Source: an uncultured Acidobacteriaceae bacterium (lineage in GTDB: Bacteria > Acidobacteriota > Terriglobia > Terriglobales > Acidobacteriaceae). From it: a DNA stretch of 64,000 nucleotides. This document shows, piece after piece, positions 41,031 to 55,272 of the stretch. Under the pieces are notes generated by a model, which worked only from the letters and a program-made list of their open reading frames with translations, did no database searches and had not been told where the DNA came from. The first letter of the stretch is position 1, and every line of letters begins with the position of its first letter. The stretch is taken from the NCBI GenBank assembly GCA_963771535.1, contig CAVYTK010000004.1, forward strand, positions 322,950 through 386,949, written 5' to 3'. The translations under genes were made by a program, and so were the position numbers.

Positions 41031-42702
41031 ATGAAGCGTATAGGTGTGCTGTTATGTTGCCTGTTGCCGCTGATGGCATGGGGGAGTCAACAATCCTCCA
41101 CCAGCCCTGACCCCCAACTCACCTCCCAACATAAGCAACTGCCGGGCGCGCCTACGCCCAGCAACGTGACGTATACGCTGCTGGCGTGGAGCGAGCTGGG
41201 AATGCATTGCATCGACGGCAAGGATTACTCGGTGTTTTCCGTTTTGCCGCCGTACAACGTGCTGCATGCGCAGTTGCTGCGCCGGGCCGAGCCGCCGGTC
41301 CCCATCACCAGCGGAGTCGTGATCACCTATAAGGCCAGTTTCGACGTTAATCGATCGCGCAATACGATCAGCTCGACTAAGACGAACTTCTGGAGCTATG
41401 TGCAGACGCTGTTCCACGTGAGTCCGCCGCCTGACCACGGCCTGAACGGCACTCCGGTACAGAGCAAGGGGCCCAATCCGCTGACCTATAACGCAACCCT
41501 GGGCTACTGGGAAGCGGCGGGAATTCCGACCATTCCTTATGACGACACGATGCAGAGCAACCCCTACCCGATGGTGACCGTCGAGGCGAGAGAGATCAGC
41601 ACCGGGGCCCTGCTGGCGACCGCTCCTGCCGTGCTGTCGGTGAGCGACGAGCTGACCTGCGGCAAATGTCACTCGTCCACCAGCGGCGACAACGACGCTA
41701 AACCGAAAAACGGATGGGAGAACGATCCCGATCCCAGCAAGGACATGAAGTTTAATATCCTGAAGAAGCACGATGACCGCTGGGACATCAGCTTCACCCT
41801 GCCCTACCTGCAACAGAATGGCTACAACTATCAGAACACGCTGTACGCCACGGCCAAAGGCGGAACGGCTGTTCTGTGCGCCGCCTGCCACGCAACCAAC
41901 GCGCTGGGCCTGACCGGAGTTCCCGGGGTGAGTGCCCTGACGGCGGATACGCACACTCTGCACGGACCGCAGATCAATTACGACAACGGCATCTCGCTGG
42001 ACAACCAGACTGATCCGCTCAACTCGTGCTACTTGTGTCATCCGGGAAAGGTCACGAAGTGCCAGCGCGGTCCCATGAACAAGGTGGCGTGCTTTGATTG
42101 TCACGGCAATCTCACCAAGGTTGGACAGAAGACCCGCGACGGATGGCTGGACGAACCCAGCTGCCAGATGTGTCATAACACCAGCCAGCGCGTATCTGAC
42201 TACCTTCGACGGCAATGGACAGTGGCGGCAGACCAGCGACCTGACGTTCGCTACCAATCCCGACAAGCCGTTGCCGGGCAAGAGCCTGTATCGCTATAGC
42301 TCGACGCATGGCGGAGTGTACTGTTCCGGCTGTCATGGCTCGCAGCACTCCGAATACCCCAGCTTGCAGGCGAACGACAACGTCTACAGTCAGCAAATCC
42401 AAACCTACACCGGCAAGCTGACGGAATGCAGTATTTGCCACACCAACGTCCCGGTGACTAACAATCAGGGGCCGCACGCGATGCATACCATCGGGCAGAG
42501 CTGGGTCAACGGGCATCCCCACTATGCAGAGAACGGGAAGTACACCGCCTGTGCCTACTGTCATGGATCGGATTACCGGGGATCATTCCTGTCGGCGACT
42601 CGCACCAATCGGACCTTCAATACGGAGAACGGGCAGAAGAACTTCACCGCAGGTCACCAGTTCTCCTGCTATGACTGCCACAACGGTCCAAACGGGGGAT
42701 AG
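41031..42702 (+). CDS. Secreted multiheme c-type cytochrome (nine CxxCH motifs), apparently frameshifted
   Basis: Signal peptide is MKRIGVLLCCLLPLMAWG. ORF 41031..42299 carries CGKCH, CAACH, CYLCH, CFDCH and CQMCH. ORF 42094..42702 carries CSGCH, CSICH, CAYCH and CYDCH. The frames join at ...CQMCHNTS|(S)AYLTTFDGNGQW... at about 42181-42195. Confidence 0.8.
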
Positions 42703-42737
42703 GACAAGCTAATTACGCAACCGGCACAGATGCACTC

Positions 42738-42766
42738 AGCCCGTCGTGACAGACGGGCTTTTTTTG
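42738..42766 (+). terminator. Rho-independent terminator
   Basis: AGCCCGTC-gtgaca-GACGGGCT is followed by TTTTTTTG, about 35 nt after the cytochrome stop. Confidence 0.75.
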
Positions 42767-42957
42767 TCGCGTCGCGTTTTGCATCTGTTGCACCCGGGTT
42801 GCAACTGTTTCTGCCTAGTCCCATTGACACCGGGAGCTAGTAGATTGCAACATCTACTCTGCGTTACAGCGGCTCTGACGGTCATCAGCTTCCTTGAAGT
42901 TCTGCTCTCCGTTGAGTACCACCTCCGAGTTTTCCGAAATACAAAGAGGAACCATCC

Positions 42958-44208
42958 TTGAAACTCGACCGACGTACCTGTCTCTCGCTTGCCCTGCTAC
43001 TGGGCTCCAGCGTTCTATGCAGTGCGGCCGACGCAAAATCGAAGCCGCAGACGCCCGCGACGCCCACGTATGTGATCGTTAACCAGGACCAGGGCTTTCC
43101 GTATCCCAATCAAGTTGCGATCTATGCGGCAGGCGGGACGGACACGGCACCCACGCTCACCCCGGTTGACCAGGTGTACACCGGTGGATTCGGCAGCTAC
43201 GGCGGATATTTTGGGACACCGCGAGTGGCCTCCGCCGCCAACGTGAACACCAACTGCGTGTATGTGTCGAACTCAGGCGACAACACCATCTCGGCGATGA
43301 CTTTGAATACGCTGGGGTTCGTGGGAACTTTCTCCGGTGGTGCTACCGACAACGGCACACCAGATGGCATCGGCATGGCAGTGAACGCGAATTATCTGTA
43401 TGCCGGGTATGGCGACTCGCAAAGCATCGCCGTGTTCAGCACCAGCGCGGGATGCGGGCTGACCTATCTGGAGAGCTTGCCCGCGGCGGGCGTGAACGGC
43501 GGTTCGCCAACCGGTATCGCTGCCAACAACAACATCCTGGTGGTGAGCTACGGCGATGGGTCCACTCAATCGTTTGACCTGACACACGGCCTGCCGTTAG
43601 CGAACAACGATCGGCGAAACTCGCGCGGCTTTGGCGGGCCCATCACCGGACTCAACTCTCCGCTGGGCAATATTCCCAACGGCGTCGATCTCAGCGCGGA
43701 TGGCAGGTGGGCGATTTTCGGTGACACTTCGACTTTGTCGCTGGTCGAGGTGGCCAGCCTGTTCACCCTGGCCCATCCTCAATTGGCTGCGACCAGGCCT
43801 TATTACAATCTGGGCACCGCGGTTGATGCCGGCGACGTAAGACTCAGTCCCGACGGCACCCTGCTTTACATGGTGAACAACGAGAGCGGGACGGTGACCG
43901 CCGCCTTCTTCAATACCGCGACCGGATTGCTCACCAAGGGCTGCACCTCTGCCCCGCTGAGGAACTTCAACTTCCTGCCCTGGTATGGACAGATCGCGAC
44001 CCGCGACACCACAGGCACGGGCAAGGTGCTGTATGTTGCCGAGTTCGGGCGGTACATCGATGAGAGTGGGCCGCCGTCGGCTGTGGGCATTCTGACCGTC
44101 ACGGTGAACGGCAATAGCTGCACGCTGACGGAGTCTGCGAATTCGCCGGTGGCTGTGCCGTTTGCCGGTGCTCTGTCACTGGGTGCGTATCCGCCGCGGC
44201 CTTATTGA
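42958..44208 (+). CDS. Secreted beta-propeller protein (lactonase/YVTN-like)
   Basis: TTG start with an AAGAGGA RBS 9 nt upstream. Signal peptide is KLDRRTCLSLALLLGSSVLCSAADA. Propeller strands include CVYVSNSGDNTISAM, YLYAGYGDSQSIAVF, ILVVSYGDGS, LLYMVNNESGTV and VLYVAEFG. Confidence 0.8.
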   Translation: MKLDRRTCLSLALLLGSSVLCSAADAKSKPQTPATPTYVIVNQDQGFPYPNQVAIYAAGGTDTAPTLTPVDQVYTGGFGSYGGYFGTPRVASAANVNTNCVYVSNSGDNTISAMTLNTLGFVGTFSGGATDNGTPDGIGMAVNANYLYAGYGDSQSIAVFSTSAGCGLTYLESLPAAGVNGGSPTGIAANNNILVVSYGDGSTQSFDLTHGLPLANNDRRNSRGFGGPITGLNSPLGNIPNGVDLSADGRWAIFGDTSTLSLVEVASLFTLAHPQLAATRPYYNLGTAVDAGDVRLSPDGTLLYMVNNESGTVTAAFFNTATGLLTKGCTSAPLRNFNFLPWYGQIATRDTTGTGKVLYVAEFGRYIDESGPPSAVGILTVTVNGNSCTLTESANSPVAVPFAGALSLGAYPPRPY

Positions 44209-44261
44209 GGGCGGGGCTTCATAGTGCTCGTGGATTTTTCCGGCGATAAAGGACTGAGGAT

Positions 44262-46016
44262 ATGAAGATGATTTCCAAGATTGGCATCATGGCGGGCGCT
44301 CTGCTCTGCGGATTATCGATGACGGCGGCGGCTCAAAATGTTTGTCCTACGCGGCCGACCTATGGCGACGAGGTGGTGAATCCGCCGGAAGTCTCCAGCA
44401 AGAATGGGAGCTTGACGCTGAACCTGGCGGAGAATAGTTCGTTTGGGCCCTCGCAGCAGGTTCGCTACTGCTACGTGTACAACAACGGCGCCCAGAATGT
44501 GGAAGCGCCTACGCTGCGGGTCAATCCCGGCGATCAGTTGAACATCAATTTCACCAACAACATCTCGGTTACGGGGTCCAAGCATCCGCTGAAGTCGCGA
44601 CATGCGCCTAACAAACCCATGGCCATGGGTGATCCCGAAGAGGCCAAAAAGACCGGCGATTTCTGTCAGGGCGGCATGGTGGACGCCACCACGACGAACA
44701 TCCATTTTCACGGGCTGAACATTCCGCCCACCTGTCATCAGGATGAAGTGATCAACACCATCATCCCCAACGGCGGCTCGCAGTTCCCGTACTCGACACA
44801 GATTCCGCCCGACGATCAGTTCGGGATGTACTGGTATCATCCCCATCCCCACGGGTTCTCGGCGCCGCAGGTTTTCGGCGGCGCGGCCGGAGCGATCATC
44901 ATCAACGGCAGCAATCAGTACACCCAGGGATTGCCGGAACGAATCATTGAAATCCGCAACAATGCTGACATGATCACCGATGAAGCGGACGGCCAGTTCT
45001 CGGTCAACTTTGTGCCGGCGAACTATCCGCGCAAACCTTTGCCGGTGATCAATACCATTCCCGGGCAAAAGGAATTCTGGCGAGTGCTGAACGCTTCGAC
45101 CAACGGCTTCCTGACGCTGCAGCTTTACACCGATCACTTGCTGCCCTTGCTGGTGGTTTCCATCGACGGCATTCCGCTGAATCCGCCGCAATCCATGACG
45201 ACGGTGACCATTCCCCCGGCGGCACGGGCGGAATTCGTAACCCCGGAGTTGCAGGCGGTCCATACCCAGCTACAGACCCAGGGATTCGATAGTGGCTCCA
45301 TCGGCGACCCGATGAAGCCGTGGACCTTGGCGAATGTGGTGGTCTCCTCGGGAAATGCCAGGAAAGAGCCGCCGAGAATGCCGCCTGCCGTGAAGCAGAC
45401 CCGGGTCGAGCGCTTCTCCGGTGTTGCCGGCAAGAAGCCCAACGTGCAGCGCAGTCTTTATTTTTCGGAAATCAATGTTGGCAGCAATGGGCCGGGACAG
45501 TTCTTCATCACCGTGCAGGGTCAGATACCGAAGGTGTTCGATGCTATGAATCCGCCCGCGATTGTGACCAAGGTGGGCAACATCGAGGACTGGACGGTTT
45601 CTAACCAGACGGCGGAGCCGCACGCCTTCCACATTCACCAGTTGCACTTCCTGGTGATGGCCATCGATGGAGTGCCACTGGCCAATCCTTATATGGCGGA
45701 CACGCTTACCATTCCGGAGTGGGCGGGCAGCGGACCTTATCACACGGCAACGCTGCGGATGGACTTCAGCGACCCGGGGATTGCCGGTACGTTCGTGTAT
45801 CACTGCCACATCCTGGACCACGAGGATGGAGGCATGATGGCGACGATTCAGGTCGAATCCGTAGAAGCGCGGGTATTTGCTTCAGGACGCGCGGCGGCTC
45901 CCCGTCGTGCGTTTTTGTTTGCTGCGGGTGGCGGGTGCGGACAGGCTTGCGGCGTTGGGGTGCCGAAATCCGTTAAGGTCCGGTGTCTCACAATGTGGGA
46001 TATGTGGCAGGACTAA
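44262..46016 (+). CDS. Multicopper oxidase (three-domain laccase/CueO-like)
   Basis: All four copper-ligand motifs are present: HFHGL, WYHPHPHG, HAFHIHQLHF and YHCHILDHEDGGMMA. Signal-like N-terminus is MKMISKIGIMAGALLCGLSMTAAAQ. An unusual roughly 55-aa tail follows the last Cu motif. Confidence 0.9.
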   Translation: MKMISKIGIMAGALLCGLSMTAAAQNVCPTRPTYGDEVVNPPEVSSKNGSLTLNLAENSSFGPSQQVRYCYVYNNGAQNVEAPTLRVNPGDQLNINFTNNISVTGSKHPLKSRHAPNKPMAMGDPEEAKKTGDFCQGGMVDATTTNIHFHGLNIPPTCHQDEVINTIIPNGGSQFPYSTQIPPDDQFGMYWYHPHPHGFSAPQVFGGAAGAIIINGSNQYTQGLPERIIEIRNNADMITDEADGQFSVNFVPANYPRKPLPVINTIPGQKEFWRVLNASTNGFLTLQLYTDHLLPLLVVSIDGIPLNPPQSMTTVTIPPAARAEFVTPELQAVHTQLQTQGFDSGSIGDPMKPWTLANVVVSSGNARKEPPRMPPAVKQTRVERFSGVAGKKPNVQRSLYFSEINVGSNGPGQFFITVQGQIPKVFDAMNPPAIVTKVGNIEDWTVSNQTAEPHAFHIHQLHFLVMAIDGVPLANPYMADTLTIPEWAGSGPYHTATLRMDFSDPGIAGTFVYHCHILDHEDGGMMATIQVESVEARVFASGRAAAPRRAFLFAAGGGCGQACGVGVPKSVKVRCLTMWDMWQD

Positions 46017-48924: not shown

Positions 48925-50445
48925 TGATGGCTCGCAATCCTGAATTGTTGCGCTACGTGCGTTCCGAGCTGCGGCCGGCGCGAGTTGCCGTCATCGTACT
49001 GTCCAGCTGGGCGGGCGCGCTGTTGATGGCGCTGTTTGTGTATCAGCAGAACGGGCAGCGGCTCGGCCCTGCTTATTGGAGCGACGTTTTCGGAGCCGTG
49101 TTTGTGGCAGCGTCGATCATCCTGGTGCTGTGGAGCCTGCTGAACGTTTCGCAATCGGTGGTGAGCGAGCGGACGCACCGCACCTTCGATTTCTGGCGCA
49201 CGACCCGCCTCTCGTCGGTCACGCTGGCCCTGGGAAAACTTTTCGGCGCACCGCTGGGTCCGTGGCTGTTGTATGGCAGTGCGTTTCCCGTGCTGCTGGT
49301 CACCGGGTTGATAGCACATTTTCGGCTGTCCGCCATTGTGGGATCGTACCTGGTTGTTGCGCTGTTCAACGTTGCGCTCAGCTCCATTGCACTGTGCGGA
49401 TCGGCACGCGCCCAGGATGCGCGCCGGGCCAACCTCTTCATGCTGGTGCTGGTAATCGCGCTGCTGCCCACGCTGAGTGTGAATTCCAACGCGCATCATC
49501 ATGCGGGGCTGGCGAGCGCCTGGAGCGCGATGGGTCCGGCGCTCGGTATTGCCGAATGGCTGCAAGGTACCATGCTTCGGGTGTCGCTCTTCGGTATGGC
49601 GGTTCCTTCGCTGCTGGTGACGGTGGTCTTGTTGCTGGCCATCATCGCCTGGTGCCTCGTGGCGCTGAAGCGCTGCATCAAGTTCGAGCCTGACCAGATT
49701 TCGTTATTCTCTCCGGCGCAGGTGGTCGGTGTGGCAGCGTCGGTTTTGCTGTTTGTCTATGCAGGATTCCGACCCATCGACGCGTTCATCACCGCTCCGA
49801 ACTTGGCGCCGGAGGACCTGGAAACTGCGCAGCTCACGCTGCAAAGCCTGGTGGCACTTGGCATCTCCGCGGCGGTCGGTTGCCTTTATTTCGCGGTGAG
49901 TGCCACGCTGCTGACGCGCGACAATCTTCGCCATGCACTGCGCAAGCGGACGCCGATGGACGTGGCGCTGCGCGCCGTGGCTCCGTGGCTGGCCACCGGC
50001 ATGGTGTCGCTGATTGCAGCCGTGCTGGCGCTCGTCGGCTATCGCCAAATGTTTGCCGGCGCGGTACCGCAGTGGTTCAGCCTGACCGCGATGTACCTCA
50101 GCGTGATGGCGTACGTGGTGCGCGATGGCATGTTCCTGCAATGGATGGTGAGCCAGAAGGTGAAGGCGCCCGTGTTGAAGGGCTCGGCCCTGCTGCTGTG
50201 CTACTACGTGGGCAGCGTGCTGGTGGCGGCGGCGTTGGCCGGACCGCAGAACATGGTCCAGATGCTGCGCTGGCTGGTGCCGTACGTCTCGGTGCCGGGG
50301 CAATTCGAGTCAGCCGCCAATTGGATGATTGTGCCTGTTGCTGGTGCCGCCGATTGCGACGGCTGCTTTGCTGGCCGCAGGCGTGTTTCGCACCATGCGG
50401 CGCACGGGCCAGACCACGACGGTGATGGCGGGCGTCCAGGGCTAG
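48921..50445 (+). CDS. Polytopic membrane protein translationally coupled to the ABC ATPase, apparent frameshift near the 3' end
   Basis: At least 10 hydrophobic segments. After ...ESAANWMIV the listed frame becomes Arg/Gly/His-rich out to 50702. Another frame gives LCLLLVPPIATAALLAAGVFRTMRRTGQTTTVMAGVQG* ending at TAG 50443-50445, 8 nt from the convergent gene stop. Confidence 0.6.
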
Positions 50446-50453
50446 GAACGCAG

Positions 50454-51483
50454 CTACTTCGGGGGACGGGTGATGGCCTCGCGCACATCGGCCAGCGGAG
50501 CGGTGTTCACCAACGTGATGGCACCGTCGGGGGCGCGCTGGATGCCCAGCTTCTGCCAGAGGGCAGGCAGATCTACGGGAGCAGGCTTGTCGCGCATCTC
50601 GTGATAAAGATCGACGAGGACATGCGTGCCGGTCGCCTTGTCGCCGACAGCAAATGCCTGCTCGATCTCCCAATCTCGGTTGATGTTGCCGCCCGCGTTT
50701 AAGAATGCCGCGGAGCGCATCCTGCAAGCCTTTGCGGTTATGGGTCTGCTCGTGGATGCGAACATCGGCAACCAGGCAGAACATCGCGCCTCCCCAATAG
50801 GTGCGTCCCCAGGTCGGGGTGCGATCGAGACCCTGGTCGCCGGATTGGGGTTCGCCTTTCGGCATATCGCGTACCACGTCATGCCACATTGTGGTAGGCG
50901 AGAGCTGGCCGGCCTGAACGCGAGCGACGGGCTCGACATAGGTGGAAATGCCTTCTTCAATCCAGTGATGCTCCTCGGCCATGGAGGGGAACGCGAGGTG
51001 GATCATTTCGTGGGTGAGCATCCAGTCGGTGTCGAGGTCTGACGTTGTGGTAGTAGCTCCGACGGAGATGCGGATGAGTCCCCCATTGTCAGAGGGGTAG
51101 GTCACGCCACCATGTACGCCCTCGCCGCCGCGTACGCTAACCTGCAACCTGAGCTGCGGTACAGGGAACTTGCCGTAGTAGGTGCAGACGGCGGTTGAGG
51201 CGCGCTTGATCCAGTTCAGCAGAGCGTCGTTGGAGATGCCCTTGGAATCGTTATCGAAGCGGATGTCAATGTTTGCGCCGCAGGCGGGCAAGCTCTGCGA
51301 GGAAATGGCGGATGCGGATCGCGACATGAAAGTAGCCACCAGAACTGCAGCTCCCAACACGACAACCGCCAGTGAGAAACGGACCCTCAGGTTGTGCCTA
51401 TCGCCTGACGACTGGCGTGCGCGCGGCCGTTCCCCGGGTATCGGCATCCACATTGGATGCGGAGGAAAGCCACTTGCGCTCAA
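50454..51483 (-). CDS. Secreted gluzincin-type (HExxH...E) metallopeptidase-like protein, apparently frameshifted
   Basis: The zinc motif is LTHEMIHLAFPSMAEEHHWIEEGISTYVEP. ORF 50098..51483 joins ORF 50454..50960 as ...KGLQDALRGIL|NAGGNINRDWEIEQAF... if the AAA run (TTT at 50698-50700 on the + strand) is read as AA. The start is uncertain (ATG 51483, 51453 or 51447) and overlaps the DoxX 3' end. Confidence 0.6.
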
Positions 51484-51920
51484 TTAAAGCGTCGAGCGAG
51501 AGGAATCCCGGACCGTAGACCAGGATGATCAGCGATGCCAGCCAGTAAGAGAACGGGGCGGCAGCGACAAACTTGTCGGGGTCGGAGAAGATTCCCAGAA
51601 ATGCGTCGTGATCGCCGGTGTAGTAGGCCACCGTCATGTTGCCGAAGAGCAGCAGCGCGATGAGACGGGTGCCGAGTCCGAGGGCCAGCAGAATTCCACC
51701 AACCAGTTCAAGAAGCGAAACCATCATTGCCGTCGCGCCGGGCGCGGGCAGTCCCGAGGCTTCCGAAGTACTCGGTCACCTTCGCGAGATGCGTCAGTTT
51801 GCCCCAGCCGTCGACGGCGAACTGGTATCCCCAGTAGAGCCGCACGAACAACAGGAAATAGGGTTGAACCGCGTTGGCGGCCTTCACAAACTGAGCGTAG
51901 AGCCTTTGCAGGGCAGTCAT
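51398..51920 (-). CDS. DoxX-family membrane protein, apparently frameshifted
   Basis: ORF 51708..51920 (MTALQRLYAQFVKAANAVQPYFLLFVRLYWGYQFAVDGWGKLTHLAKVTEYFGSLG) joins ORF 51398..51727 (MMVSLLELVGGILLALGLGTRLIALLLFGNM...). The junction ...SLG|LPAPGATAMMVS... forms if the GGG (CCC at 51753-51755 on the + strand) is read as GG. Confidence 0.75.
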
Positions 51921-52090: not shown

Positions 52091-52960
52091 CTACGGTTTG
52101 CAAAACCATCCTGAGGCCGACCAATACGCGAACCACTTCTGCACATCGGCCATGGCTGCGTCGATATTGCGGCCGCTCCAGTCGACTTCATCCACCGCAT
52201 TGGACAGCGTGAGGCCCTGGCGCAGGGAAGTGAGAATGGTGAATGCTTCCTGGTCGATGCGTTTGAAGAAGACGGTGTTCTCGGCACGATGCACCGCCAA
52301 AAAAGTGCGCTCGGGTTTTGGAAGCCGGCGGCGGCGCGAACGGGAATGGGTGCGCTCGGTGACGGCGTTGCTCACGATGTCGGTTTCTTCCAGTTCGCTG
52401 CGAACCTTGATCAGCAGATCGTCAACCGGGTAGCTCAGATCGAGCAGCCGAATATAAGGCTGCAACTGGAAGTGAGGATCGGGACCGAGTGCGGGCAGAT
52501 CGGCTTCGGTGAGCCGCGGCCGGGCAGCTTCGTCGAAAGCTTCAATCTCGGCCCACTCCAGGCGCACCATGTCGAGTGCGATCTGCTCGTTGGCGGCGAT
52601 GTATTGCGGATGTTCGCTCAGCCATGACTGCAAGCGTGAGCCCAGGTTGCGCAGTGTGAACGACTGCGATGGGCACTCGTAGAGATATTCGACTGCCATC
52701 TTCTCAAAACGCTGCTCGCCGATGATGGCGCGCAGCCCGGGGAAATCCTCGGACAACGCCGAGAGAATGCGGAACCAATACTGCCGGTTGTAGATTTCCA
52801 GCCGCTCAAACGAGGTCAGCCGATCGTTGGGCTTGATGATTTCCTCGGCTACGGCGCGAAGCGACTTGCCCTCGCGCGAACGCTGCCGCATTCCTTCCTC
52901 GGCAGTGAGAGGCTGGCGGATGGCATCGAACATGGCGCGCTGAATGTGGTCGAGCGACAT
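52091..52960 (-). CDS. DUF2063-family protein (partner of DUF692/MNIO enzymes)
   Basis: Begins MSLDHIQRAMFDAIRQPL. The conserved block is LEIYNRQYWFRILSALSEDFPGLRAIIGEQRFEKMAVEYLYECPSQSFTLRNLGSRLQSWL. Its ATG 52960 overlaps the restored TGA of the upstream gene. Confidence 0.8.
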   Translation of the reverse strand: MSLDHIQRAMFDAIRQPLTAEEGMRQRSREGKSLRAVAEEIIKPNDRLTSFERLEIYNRQYWFRILSALSEDFPGLRAIIGEQRFEKMAVEYLYECPSQSFTLRNLGSRLQSWLSEHPQYIAANEQIALDMVRLEWAEIEAFDEAARPRLTEADLPALGPDPHFQLQPYIRLLDLSYPVDDLLIKVRSELEETDIVSNAVTERTHSRSRRRRLPKPERTFLAVHRAENTVFFKRIDQEAFTILTSLRQGLTLSNAVDEVDWSGRNIDAAMADVQKWFAYWSASGWFCKP

Positions 52961-53803
52961 CAGGCGCCTACCTTCTCGGCGACATAGCGATGGGCCTTCA
53001 GCGCCTCGTTGTGCACTTCGTCGAAGGAAGGAATGTGGTCGTCCCACTCCAGCAAGCGTGGCAGTCGGGCCGGTGAGCTCGATGGCGCGCGCGTACAGCT
53101 CCCACACGGGATCGATCACCGGATGGTCGTGCGTGTCGAGGATGTATTTCTCAAACTTCGAGTGGCCGGCAATGTGGATCTGCGCGACGCGCTCAGGCGG
53201 CACGCTGTTTACATAGTCGAAGGGATCGAAGGTGTGATTGCGCGACGACACGTAGATGTTGTTGACGTCGAGCAGAATGCCGCAGTCGGCGCGCTCGACC
53301 ACTTCGTTCAGGAACTGCCACTCCGTCATTTCGGAAGCGTGAAACTCGGCGTAGCTGCTGACGTTTTCGACGACTACCGGGACTTCGACGAAGTCGCGCA
53401 CCTCGCGGATCTTTTGCGCGGTTTTGGCGGCGGCTTCGAAGGTGTAGGGCATGGGCAGCAGGTCGTGCGAGTAGCTGCCGTCGACGCTGCCCCAGCAAAG
53501 ATGATCGGAGAGCCACGGCGTATTGGTGCGGCGCACCAGCGCTTTCAGGCGCTTCAGGTGCTCGCGGTTCGGTGGCTCGACGGAGCCGAAATACATGGAG
53601 ACGCCGTGCTGCACCACGCGATACTGCTCGAGAATCTGGTCGAGGATGTGCAGCGGACGGCCGCCATCGACCATGAAATTTTCGGAGATGATTTCGAACC
53701 AGTCGACGACCGGCTTTTTCTCCAGGATGTGGTTGTAATGCGGAATGCGAAGTCCGATGCCGACTCCGTAATCGGTGAAACCGTTGAAGCGATTGGCAGG
53801 CAT
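52960..53803 (-). CDS. DUF692 / multinuclear non-heme iron oxidase (MbnB/TglH/BufB-like), one apparent frameshift
   Basis: TIM-barrel DUF692 signature: MPANRFNGFTDYGVGIGLRIPHYNHIL...DWFEIISENFM...VQHGVSMYFGS...WLSDHLCW...VENVSSY...LLDVNNIYVS...IHIAGH. After ...ELTGPTAT the alternative frame gives the canonical end LLEWDDHIPSFDEVHNEALKAHRYVAEKVGA*. The break is at about 53050-53060. The track shows it fused to the next gene as one 570-aa ORF. Confidence 0.85.
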
Positions 53804-53889
53804 TGGAAAAATTCGTGGCCCAGGTGATTGCGAAAAGTTGATACGGGCCGAAGCTGGTTAACTCCGGCCCCTGTGATGAGTCAGGAGGG

Positions 53890-54171
53890 TTACTGGGGCG
53901 CCTTGGATCCGTCGGTGGCGCAGCCGCCCTTGCCCTTGCAGGAGTTCTTGCCCTTGCAGCCGTTGTCGCCGGTCTTGCAGCCGCCCTTGCCCTTGCAGGA
54001 GTTCTGGCCCTTGCAGGCGTGCTTGTCCTTAGAGAAATCGGCGGCAAAAGAGCCGTTGTCCGCGGAGGAAACAGTGCTGCTGCCGTTGTTGGTCTGGGCA
54101 ACCATGGTGCCGCCGGCCATAAAGCCGGCCAGAGCCGCGCCCATCATCAGAGACTTCATTGACTTCGTCAT
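53890..54171 (-). CDS. Sec-signal, 6-Cys RiPP precursor peptide (bufferin-like)
   Basis: ATG 54171 with RBS GAGGAG 9 nt upstream. Sequence: MTKSMKSLMMGAALAGFMAGGTMVAQT|NNGSSTVSSADNGSFAADFSKDKHACKGQNSCKGKGGCKTGDNGCKGKNSCKGKGGCATDGSKAPQ*. It lies 86 nt upstream of, and co-directional with, the DUF692 gene. Confidence 0.75.
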   Translation of the reverse strand: MTKSMKSLMMGAALAGFMAGGTMVAQTNNGSSTVSSADNGSFAADFSKDKHACKGQNSCKGKGGCKTGDNGCKGKNSCKGKGGCATDGSKAPQ

Positions 54172-54516
54172 TTGCTTAATTCTCCTCACCGTTTTTTTTG
54201 GAGCGGGCCACTGTCGAGTTGACCTCACCCAGATTGATTACGTGCGGGGTATCTTCCGGGATTTCTTCCCGCAAGGCAAATATTTTCTGCGCGAGATATT
54301 CGACATCCCCCACTTTGGTGGTACCGCCGGGTTAGGCAGTGAACCGGTGCCCAGCAATGTACCACGCTGTACTGCGAGGTAAGACGCGGCTTCCGGTAGA
54401 AAGTTACAGAGCGCGATATTTTGGTGGCGGCGGCAGCGGTTGTCACAAAATCCGGTCTTCGGAGTCAAACCGGCCATGAGAAGATGCCCACGAGAGAAGG
54501 AGTTGATCGGCGAACG

Positions 54517-55272
54517 ATGATATTGCATTCACCGCGGGAGCGCCCTGAGCCGTGGCAGGAAAAGCGCGCCGCAGCCCGTAATCCTTTTATGGTGCTGCTG
54601 CTGGCGCTGGAGTATCCGTTCGAGTGGCTGGCCTACGTACTTAGCCAGTGGGCGTTTCTGGAAGCGCTCGAATACCTGGGCAGCTTCTCCATTCTGATCG
54701 CGGTGATCTTCTATTTCAGCGAGTCGGGCGATCGCGTAAAGCAGAAGCACTACCAGGCGTGGCAGGTGATCAACACCGCGCAGGGGAAGGGCGGCAGCGG
54801 CGGACGCATTGAAGCCTTGCAAGAGTTGGAGCACGATGGCGTGCCCCTGGTCGGAGTCGATGTGTCAGGGGCATTTTTGCAGGGGCTGAGCTTGCCGCAT
54901 GCGCAGCTGTTGCGCGCCAACTTCAATGCGGTGGACGCCCGTAACAGCGACTTCCGCGATGCCGATTTCGTCGCGGCCAACCTGCACGCGGGAAATTTCA
55001 GGTACAGCAACTTCGCAGGCGCCAATCTTCAAGATGCCGACCTGGGAGAAGCCGACTTCTGCTATGCGAATTTGAGTGGCGCGAACCTGGCAGGCGCGAC
55101 CCTCGATGGCGCTGACATGGGAAGTACCGATCTTACGAACCTGAAATGGCAGGACATCAAGAGCGTGAAGGGGACCAGCCTGCAGGCGGTGCGCAATGCG
55201 CCAGCAGGTTTCCTGGAGTGGGCGGCGGCGCATGGCGCTACGACCAGTGGTGGGCCTTCGGACTGCCAGTAA
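54517..55272 (+). CDS. Membrane-anchored pentapeptide-repeat protein
   Basis: Two TM segments (FMVLLLALEYPFEWLAYVL, LGSFSILIAVIFYF) are followed by A(D/N)LxG repeats (ANLQDADLGEADFCYANLSGANLAGATLDGADMGSTDL). Start is ATG 54517 (RBS GAAGGAG), or alternatively 54484. Confidence 0.8.
   Translation: MILHSPRERPEPWQEKRAAARNPFMVLLLALEYPFEWLAYVLSQWAFLEALEYLGSFSILIAVIFYFSESGDRVKQKHYQAWQVINTAQGKGGSGGRIEALQELEHDGVPLVGVDVSGAFLQGLSLPHAQLLRANFNAVDARNSDFRDADFVAANLHAGNFRYSNFAGANLQDADLGEADFCYANLSGANLAGATLDGADMGSTDLTNLKWQDIKSVKGTSLQAVRNAPAGFLEWAAAHGATTSGGPSDCQ

Follow-up and report, generated by a model that had tools for sequence, protein, structure and literature searches.

A probable bufferin-2-type precursor gene built from tandem three-cysteine units in an Acidobacteriaceae operon

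Results

A Precursor Gene Leads a Four-Gene Operon.

The window (the whole 64,000-nt stretch of Acidobacteriaceae DNA that was analyzed) carries, on its minus strand, a small gene followed by genes for an MNIO maturase, its DUF2063 partner and a DoxX protein. The bufA2-bufB(MNIO)-bufC(DUF2063)-doxX arrangement, with bufA2 first, is a conserved operon of Acidobacteriaceae. The features discussed below are the following, with the basis of each assignment in brackets.

54383..54407, minus strand: ECF-sigma-type promoter-like motif GTAACT-N16-GTC, 236 nt 5' of the bufA2 ATG (motif count in orthologues)
54182..54187, minus strand: Shine-Dalgarno sequence GAGGAG, 10 nt 5' of the bufA2 ATG (sequence)
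53890..54171, minus strand: bufA2, probable bufferin-2 precursor, 93 aa (ORF, NF050166 match, homologues, dN/dS of the core)
54097..54171, minus strand: Sec-type signal peptide, residues 1-25 (MTKSMKS / LMMGAALAGFMAGGTMVA), probable cut after MVA/Q (sequence inspection)
54016..54096, minus strand: variable Ser/Asn/Asp-rich spacer, residues 26-52, ending in a conserved K-H-A before Cys I (homologue alignments)
53977..54015, minus strand: module 1, CKGQNSCKGKGGC, Cys I-III, C53-C65 (sequence and family consensus)
53959..53976, minus strand: linker KTGDNG between the modules (repeat search; family consensus K-(T/S)-G-D-N-G)
53920..53958, minus strand: module 2, CKGKNSCKGKGGC, Cys IV-VI, C72-C84 (sequence and family consensus)
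53845..53870, minus strand: stem-loop GGGCCGGAGTT-aacc-AGCTTCGGCCC in the bufA2-bufB spacer, starting 20 nt after the bufA2 stop (MFE -21.3 kcal/mol, z -2.6)
52960..53803, minus strand: bufB, MNIO maturase, with a 1-nt insertion near 53053-53057 (NF050167 MNIO_BufB)
52091..52960, minus strand: bufC, DUF2063/RRE partner, 289 aa, its start overlapping the bufB stop (PF09836)
51398..51920, minus strand: doxX (bufD-like), read as two overlapping ORFs because of a frameshift (DoxX Pfam matches in both halves)

The ORF at 53890-54171(-) runs from an ATG at 54171 to a TAA at 53892-53890 and encodes a peptide of 93 aa, whose full translation (54171-53890, minus strand) is MTKSMKSLMMGAALAGFMAGGTMVAQTNNGSSTVSSADNGSFAADFSKDKHACKGQNSCKGKGGCKTGDNGCKGKNSCKGKGGCATDGSKAPQ. 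Its signal peptide was recognized by inspection: the n-region is rich in K, a hydrophobic stretch of 18 residues follows, and position -1 is occupied by a small residue. This region is kept across 100 aligned homologues. A Sec signal peptide is a property of the bufferin family (PMC11626156). The spacer that follows is poorly conserved in homologue alignments, with the exception of K50 and H51, which are invariant or nearly so.

The initial annotation had described the core as an internal duplication of CKG(Q/K)NSCKGKGGC-type modules that is also visible in the DNA, and this proved real: the two modules are identical at 12 of 13 residues and at 38 of 39 nucleotides, a single base being different. 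Together with the linker, each module forms a repeat unit of 19 residues (57 nt), so that the modules lie 19 residues apart. At up to 3 mismatches, the module 39-mer occurs at exactly 2 sites in the 64-kb window (0 expected from 100 shuffles), and in a repeat search the pair extends over 54 nt with an identity of 89% and a spacing of 57 nt. TRF additionally reported an 18-nt sub-period in 5.5 copies, corresponding to hexads of the form CKGxxx; three such hexad-like stretches make up each unit. A self-match of 12/13 within the core was reached by none of 5,000 composition-preserving shuffles, the best of which gave 9.

The Cys spacing of 5,5,6,5,5, the small residue (A, S or G) before every Cys and the lack of F, W and Y in the core (H51-Q93) were likewise read from the sequence as first described. 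The annotation had also stated that five of the six Cys are followed by KG; a Lys does follow five of them, Cys VI being the sole Cys without one, but KG follows four only, as C65 continues as C-K-T and C84 as C-A-T.

An AlphaFold2 prediction of the precursor from a 100-sequence alignment gave no confident fold (pLDDT 52, pTM 0.22), and a sequence search of the PDB with the precursor returned no match at E <= 1. A Pfam search with the same sequence returned no match even at E <= 10. Multi-module relatives, treated below, reach DUF7640 (PF24646) below threshold only.

The DNA Identity of the Modules Mainly Reflects Codon Bias.

At the 12 positions where the two modules have the same residue, the same codon is used 12 times. 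The initial annotation had proposed that module number could vary through repeat slippage, and one reading of the match at DNA level is that the repeat is a strain-specific event, arisen by a fresh 57-nt tandem duplication or by gene conversion at a locus that is actively slipping. With 12/12 shared codons and 38/39 nucleotides, the window gene indeed stands highest among 81 orthologues and is the only one with complete codon sharing; under window-average codon usage, the modules would share their codons with a probability of only about 3e-5. A truly recent 57-nt duplication also exists in a relative (locus L081, 56/57 nt identical).

However, every shared codon is the preferred one of the gene, which uses AAG at 13/13, GGC at 16/17, TGC at 6/6 and AAC at 6/6 of the respective positions, and the bias is equal outside the modules (AAG 6/6, GGC 8/9, AAC 4/4). 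When family-wide codon frequencies of the modules are used instead, the chance of 12/12 rises to about 0.003 per gene by a hand estimate, so that about 0.2 such genes would be expected among 81. In the closest orthologues the layout is again one of two modules, but 8/12 and 10/12 codons are shared, which makes the duplication older than these species, and the sequences flanking the modules (linker versus tail) have diverged. At same-residue positions, codon sharing between modules 1 and 2 averages 0.648 within genes (81 orthologues) and 0.61 between genomes, which also led us to reject concerted evolution as the process keeping the modules identical at the level of the family. Given that the codon is shared at 65% of same-residue positions in the 81 orthologues and that the window gene uses preferred codons nearly throughout, its DNA identity is mostly a matter of codon bias. 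We conclude that the near-perfect match comes mainly from identical residues combined with extreme codon bias and not from a recent duplication, and we consider a recent event in this strain to be improbable. A small, local gene conversion at the modules may nevertheless have occurred.

The Maturase Appears to Be of the Cys-Lys Type, and bufB and doxX Are Frameshifted.

The initial annotation had proposed that the ORF encodes a substrate of an MNIO (DUF692) enzyme, in agreement with which the adjoining gene encodes a BufB-type MNIO. Against NF050167 (cutoff 310 bits), bufB scored 317.4 bits in its uncorrected form; removal of one base raised this to 347.5 bits, the match then spanning positions 1-261 of 262, and gave a BufB of 280 aa. 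The inserted base throws the reading out of frame immediately ahead of the EWDD motif of the active site (...TATL/LEWDDHIPSF...AEKVGA, stop). It also creates an apparent BufB-BufC fusion in the form of a 570-aa MNIO-DUF2063 ORF, which we rejected as an artefact of the 1-nt insertion, the closest genome locus having two genes. This locus (L001), from an Acidobacteriaceae MAG, encodes a precursor 89% identical to that of the window, followed in the same order by a separate bufB (295 aa), bufC (288 aa) and an intact doxX (169 aa). BufC matched PF09836 with 58.9 bits (cutoff 27.2) and the HvfC-family model with E 2e-11, although its 44 bits lie below the cutoff of 142. The joined DoxX protein matched the HvfX family with E 5e-16 and 59.3 bits, below the 80-bit cutoff.

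Frame-corrected BufB reads LEWDDH, and 73 of 74 orthologues have LEWDD. In MNIOs acting on Cys-Lys precursors, an Asp that contacts the substrate Lys is reported to replace, beside the catalytic Asp, the Phe of Lys-Cys enzymes (PMC13097082). The Asp-Asp of window BufB (EWDD) thus appears to match Cys-Lys specificity, its equivalence to FonB D249/F250 being taken from the E-W-D context and not from a structure-based alignment.

A peptidase gene further downstream is also frameshifted, so that three indels, at about 53055 (bufB), 51725-51750 (doxX) and 50704 (peptidase), fall within about 3.5 kb. Should the frameshifts in bufB and doxX be genuine, this strain would leave the peptide unmodified. 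The operon could then be decaying, with bufB, doxX and the peptidase gene as true pseudogenes and the peptide, if made, either an unmodified, Cys-rich peptide of the periplasm, metallothionein-like or disulfide-rich, or non-functional; the position of the bufB insertion just before the catalytic EWDD and the two further frameshifts would suit such a course. Yet the protein sequence is well conserved on either side of all three frameshifts, which in their density resemble assembly indel errors, and the removal of one base restores bufB to 347 bits over the full model. Additionally, bufA2 itself is intact, uses optimal codons and shows no nonsynonymous change in its core relative to L001 and L002. 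Three indels in otherwise well-conserved coding sequence are most likely an assembly error, and we hold decay of the operon to be very improbable.

The Gene Is Under Purifying Selection and Conserved Across Acidobacteriota.

A search with the precursor retrieved 7542 homologues, and the best 120 almost all show the Cys spacing of 5,5,6,5,5. When species-representative genomes were scanned, at least 579 loci emerged; the best 80 of these, to which the taxonomy refers, belong nearly all to Acidobacteriota (mostly Acidobacteriaceae, with other Terriglobia) and in a few cases to Verrucomicrobiota. The cultured Silvibacterium bohemicum S15 and Edaphobacter aggregans DSM 19364 are among these 80. 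The operon is very widespread in Acidobacteriaceae, which are major bacteria of soil.

The consensus of 251 distinct domains is KHA-CKGQNSCKGKGGC-K(T/S)GDNG-CKGKNSCKGKGGC-ATDGSK, and in each module the Asn and Gly-Gly-Cys positions show no variation. The initial annotation had staked its modular reading on a CKGxNSCKGKGGC periodicity recurring in homologues, and the periodicity is kept in the best homologues as well as in the 251 domains. The two-unit architecture is ancient and family-wide.

Gene order is conserved as well. Of 85 loci, 79 have a BufB homologue downstream on the same strand and 74 have a bufC partner, and the order A2-B-C-DoxX is maintained in 71 of the 71 loci having all three downstream genes. 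In comparison with the ten closest orthologues, the core showed a dN/dS of 0-0.09 at a dS of 0.17-1.15. Clearly, the bufA2 ORF is translated and is subject to strong purifying selection. That it is instead an untranslated, chance low-complexity repeat in GC-rich DNA, for which the missing Pfam match could be cited, is effectively refuted by this selection signature, with synonymous change abundant, as well as by the Shine-Dalgarno sequence at proper distance from the ATG, the thousands of homologues of the same frame and length and the fixed place before bufB, and has next to no chance of being correct.

The Precursor Very Probably Belongs to the BufA2 Family.

The only NCBIfam match of the precursor is NF050166, Cu_RiPP_BufA2 ("BufA2 family periplasmic bufferin-type metallophore"), with E 7.3e-10. 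Its score of 38.9 bits lies below the 60-bit trusted cutoff of NCBI. Multi-module proteins drawn from the same set of homologues reach 51-63 bits, and one of them (P0073) passes; the cutoff is an annotation rule and not a biological feature. In the published description of the Buf2 family, 90% of the members have 6 Cys and the others have 12, by duplication of the 6-Cys domain (PMC12452194). Six-Cys precursors beside DUF692/DUF2063 genes had earlier been noted in Antarctic soil metagenomes (PMC8692599), and a 2026 study grouped such precursors as repeat-containing "Cys-Lys" captophorins (PMC13097082). The Lys-, Cys- and Gly-rich, aromatic-free composition, which had first struck the annotation as unusual for a RiPP core, is in fact the signature of the published Buf2 (BUF_6/12Cys) bufferins and "Cys-Lys" captophorins (PMC11626156, PMC12452194, PMC13097082).

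Taken together, the ORF very probably encodes the BufA2 precursor of a Buf2-type bufferin, which is a metallophore made by the ribosome, exported through Sec and derived from Cys, and in this gene the DNA identity of the modules is a product of their residues and codon bias.

The Number of Modules Varies Among Relatives.

The initial annotation had suggested that the number of modules could differ between strains. We counted modules in 370 collected relatives, a sample biased toward similarity with the queries.

1 module: 7 proteins of 370, all truncated or frameshifted
2 modules: 285 proteins of 370
3 modules: 22 proteins of 370
4 modules: 52 proteins of 370
5 modules: 2 proteins of 370
6 modules: 2 proteins of 370

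Module number does vary, from 2 to 6, and no bona fide one-module gene was present among the 370 relatives. The series is not one of 6, 12 and higher Cys numbers, as had been expected, but of 6, 9, 12, 15 and 18 Cys, in steps of the 19-residue unit. About 10 of the three-module proteins are evenly spaced, with 9 Cys at intervals of 5,5,6,5,5,6,5,5. One of these 9-Cys precursors (P0076, locus L081) is encoded within a complete MNIO-DUF2063-DoxX operon. The second and third units of the L081 gene are identical at 56 of 57 nt and have a rare GGT codon in common, the duplicated unit including the linker; they are a recent tandem duplication. In four other 9-Cys genes, the units differ at 10-23 of 57 nt, nonsynonymous sites included, which rules out an origin of the 9-Cys variants as assembly stutter for four of the five. 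The leaders of 9-Cys genes are only 32-55% identical to one another, and three of them match leaders of two-module genes at 91%, 89% and 71%, pointing to at least three independent gains from two to three modules. In the bufferin literature searched, which has 6 or 12 Cys, we found no mention of 9-Cys Buf2 forms, nor of relatives with 3, 5 or 6 modules.

Sequence Elements Around bufA2.

The 70 nt following the bufA2 stop have a z below -2 in 74% of 85 loci. RiPP operons commonly have a hairpin between the precursor and enzyme genes, and the stem-loop in the bufA2-bufB spacer fits this pattern. It may act in attenuation or in mRNA stability.

Upstream of bufA2, the motif GTAAC[CT]-N16-[GC]TC is present in 19 of 84 orthologous upstream regions, whereas shuffles give 0.4 and the opposite strand gives 1, and across these 84 regions the spacing is sharply peaked at 16. 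In Caulobacter, the sigmaF site GTAACC-N16-CGAA drives both buf1 and buf2, and the window motif shares its -35 element and spacing (PMC3511200). We infer that GTAACT-N16-GTC could function as a promoter. A crude region-2 regex applied to six frames detected no ECF sigma gene in the window, a negative of little weight, and a sigF/nrsF partner was likewise not found. A scan for sigma-70 promoters gave one weak site at 54446-54418, on which none of our conclusions rests. Further, a multicopper oxidase is encoded 8 kb from bufA2; like the sigmaF-like motif, this is no more than an indirect hint of copper binding, copper-stress induction or a protective role.

Discussion

A Proposed Route From Precursor to Metallophore.

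In the Buf2 family, BufB and BufC turn Cys into 5-thiooxazoles and the products buffer periplasmic copper; in Buf2 of Caulobacter vibrioides, each of the four central Cys loses 4 Da, and the first and last Cys stay unmodified, probably as a disulfide (PMC11626156). The steps that we propose for the window are extrapolated from systems characterized in Caulobacter, Fontimonas and Haemophilus. Together with BufC, its DUF2063/RRE partner, the MNIO BufB, an iron enzyme, would oxidize Cys in Cys-Lys contexts to 5-thiooxazoles in the cytoplasm, at a loss of 4 Da per Cys, and the second Asp of its EWDD motif, next to the catalytic one, may read the Lys following each target Cys. The precursor would then be Sec-exported and its signal peptide removed after MVA. 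Cys I and Cys VI, the latter having no Lys after it, would likely remain unmodified and pair as a disulfide, and surplus periplasmic Cu(I)/Cu(II) would be captured by the four thiooxazoles between them.

The initial annotation had suggested that the module may be a recognition motif for the MNIO enzyme. While the link to an MNIO stood, published work favors a local Cys-Lys context, read by an Asp of the MNIO, over the whole 13-mer, and the recognition element at each site is likely the local C-K(-G) context. In vitro, FonBC modified a two-repeat peptide and did not modify a one-repeat peptide (PMC13097082). Speculatively, such a need for two repeats would fit the absence of genuine one-module genes.

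What the Locus Adds.

The window precursor is a further member of the published Buf2/BufA2 family ("BUF_6/12Cys", "Cys-Lys captophorin") and does not overturn current understanding. A gene that falls below the BufA2 cutoff of NCBI, and that is recorded as a hypothetical protein in its nearest relatives, can now be named as a BufA2-type bufferin precursor, and the seeming BufB-BufC fusion resolves into two genes and an indel.

Only two points are mildly new. One is the sigmaF-like motif in Acidobacteriaceae, which points to ECF-controlled expression under metal stress outside Proteobacteria. The other is the 19-residue unit as the step in copy number, with natural 9-Cys variants; the core of Buf2 is most aptly viewed as a tandem series of three-Cys units, each of 19 residues. 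Going further, we offer as a tentative proposal, for which we would stop just short of an even chance, that this unit (57 nt) and not the 6-Cys domain is the evolvable block of Buf2, and that its copy number shifts recurrently by unequal recombination between modules, with at least three independent gains from two to three units in Acidobacteriota, one of them very recent. The 9- and 15-Cys forms would then lie outside the scheme of one Cys I-Cys VI disulfide and four thiooxazoles and would tune the number of metal ions per peptide. The natural variants of 2-6 units, including those with 9 Cys, are ready substrates for studying the repeat need of BufB/BufC and their choice of Cys.

Comparison With Known Systems.

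Several better-known classes were considered for the window peptide and set aside. A metallothionein-like, cytoplasmic six-Cys peptide does not agree with the export signal of the precursor. A ranthipeptide (SCIFF) was rejected since the operon consists of MNIO, DUF2063 and DoxX genes, with no radical-SAM gene among them. Methanobactin (MbnA/MbnB/MbnC) resembles the window system in being a copper-binding RiPP with MNIO-modified Cys, but differs in its oxazolone-thioamide chemistry, in having a leader peptide instead of a Sec signal and in its MbnC partner. It was excluded because the MbnB model TIGR04159 gave 35.8 bits against a cutoff of 325, the partner is a DUF2063 protein and not MbnC, and the precursor has a signal peptide.

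Buf1 (DUF2282) shares with the window the A-B-C-DoxX logic of the operon, Sec export, thiooxazoles and copper protection, the latter two as predicted properties on the side of the window. It differs in having four Cys, no internal repeat, a precursor of another family (PF10048) and a frequent linkage to sigF/nrsF.

Oxazolin (HvfA) and fontiphorin (FonA) are, like the window precursor, repeat-built and rich in Cys, Lys and Gly, and closely related pairs of MNIO and DUF2063(PME1) proteins turn them into copper-binding products with 5-thiooxazoles. These are, however, "Lys-Cys" captophorins, with K-C-G in EGKCG 5-mers, whereas the window has C-K-G in hexads, and the specificity residues of their MNIOs are Arg-Arg and Phe, the Phe standing where window BufB has Asp. 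NACKG-type substrates are not processed by FonBC (PMC13097082). We therefore rejected a Lys-Cys captophorin with EGKCG repeats: the peptide contains no K-C-G, an Asp is found at the Phe position and the HvfB model gave 249.5 bits against a cutoff of 360.

Buf2 of C. vibrioides (NF050166; BufB2, BufC2), whose BufA2 was compared through the descriptions in the papers and not by sequence, is like the window in its Sec signal, its six Cys in Cys-Lys contexts and the position of the precursor gene directly before those of a BufB-type MNIO (EWDD) and a DUF2063 partner. Its chemistry (5-thiooxazoles at -4 Da per Cys and a terminal disulfide) and its buffering of periplasmic copper are predicted to be the same for the window. 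The two differ in their hosts, Acidobacteriaceae as opposed to the alphaproteobacterium Caulobacter, and in doxX, which is part of the window operon but absent from the Caulobacter buf2 operon (PMC11626156). The distance from Cys I to Cys VI is 31 residues in the window and 26 in C. vibrioides Buf2 (numbering of the paper), so that the assignment of modified Cys is not simply transferable.

The 12-Cys Buf2 bufferins (PMC12452194) have four modules, usually as two 6-Cys domains that each follow a K-H and are joined by linkers of 6-35 residues, in comparison to two modules in the window. They are built from the same three-Cys modules as the window precursor, and a change in copy number is thus tolerated by the family.

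Apparent fusion and frameshifts in the buf operon

In the window, the MNIO maturase gene bufB and its DUF2063/RRE partner bufC are read as one ORF, and two further genes are disrupted:

52091-53803, minus strand: 570-aa ORF resembling an MNIO-DUF2063 fusion, with an indel near 53053-53057
51398-51920, minus strand: doxX, as two overlapping ORFs split by a frameshift
50098-51483, minus strand: peptidase-like gene downstream of doxX, frameshifted near 50704

We rejected the fusion as only apparent, since a single inserted base, immediately before the EWDD active-site motif of BufB, creates the long ORF. When one base is deleted, BufB is restored at 280 aa, and the bufB stop and the start of bufC overlap at 52960. 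The peptidase-like gene is frameshifted in comparison to its orthologue in the closest related locus (L001, from an Acidobacteriaceae MAG), which is intact at 339 aa and gave no Pfam match. The occurrence of three indels within about 3.5 kb suggests that assembly indel errors, rather than biology, underlie the frameshifts in bufB, doxX and the peptidase-like gene.

Neighboring genes

54421-55272, plus strand: membrane-anchored pentapeptide-repeat protein, divergent from bufA2
41031-42299, plus strand: multihaem c-type cytochrome
42958-44208, plus strand: beta-propeller protein
44262-46016, plus strand: three-domain multicopper oxidase

The pentapeptide-repeat gene is kept at the same position in L001, yet in only 7 of the 85 related loci, and its product therefore probably lies outside the buf system. 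The cytochrome, beta-propeller and multicopper oxidase genes (41031-46016) are separated from the buf operon by about 8 kb and may be linked to copper handling.

Nine-Cys precursors and paralogues

Three-module Buf2 precursors with nine Cys exist at L081 (5001-5348) and at four further related loci (L082-L085). The operon at L081 is complete, and its precursor gene carries a 57-nt tandem duplication that is 56/57 identical, while the units have diverged in the other four nine-Cys precursor genes. Buf2 with 6 or 12 Cys has been described (PMC12452194), and we found no mention of nine-Cys forms in the bufferin papers searched. Pfam DUF7640 (PF24646) matched the multi-module relatives P0129, P0326 and P0076 (the last encoded at L081) below threshold and did not match the two-module peptide of the window. 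This family could be an uncurated home of long Buf2 proteins.

In some Acidobacteriota genomes, two same-strand bufA2 paralogues are also found near each other:

L044: 3764-4063 and 5145-5438
L052: 5489-5776 and 6001-6303

Putative regulatory elements around bufA2

53845-53870, minus strand: GC-rich stem-loop beginning 20 nt 3' of the bufA2 stop codon
54383-54407, minus strand: conserved ECF-type promoter-like motif GTAAC[CT]-N16-[GC]TC upstream of bufA2

A similarly stable structure follows the precursor gene in 74% of the 85 related loci. The upstream motif is present in 19 of 84 orthologous upstream regions (0.4 expected). Caulobacter buf operons are controlled through the sigmaF site GTAACC-N16-CGAA (PMC3511200), with which the bufA2 motif agrees in the -35 element and the spacing.
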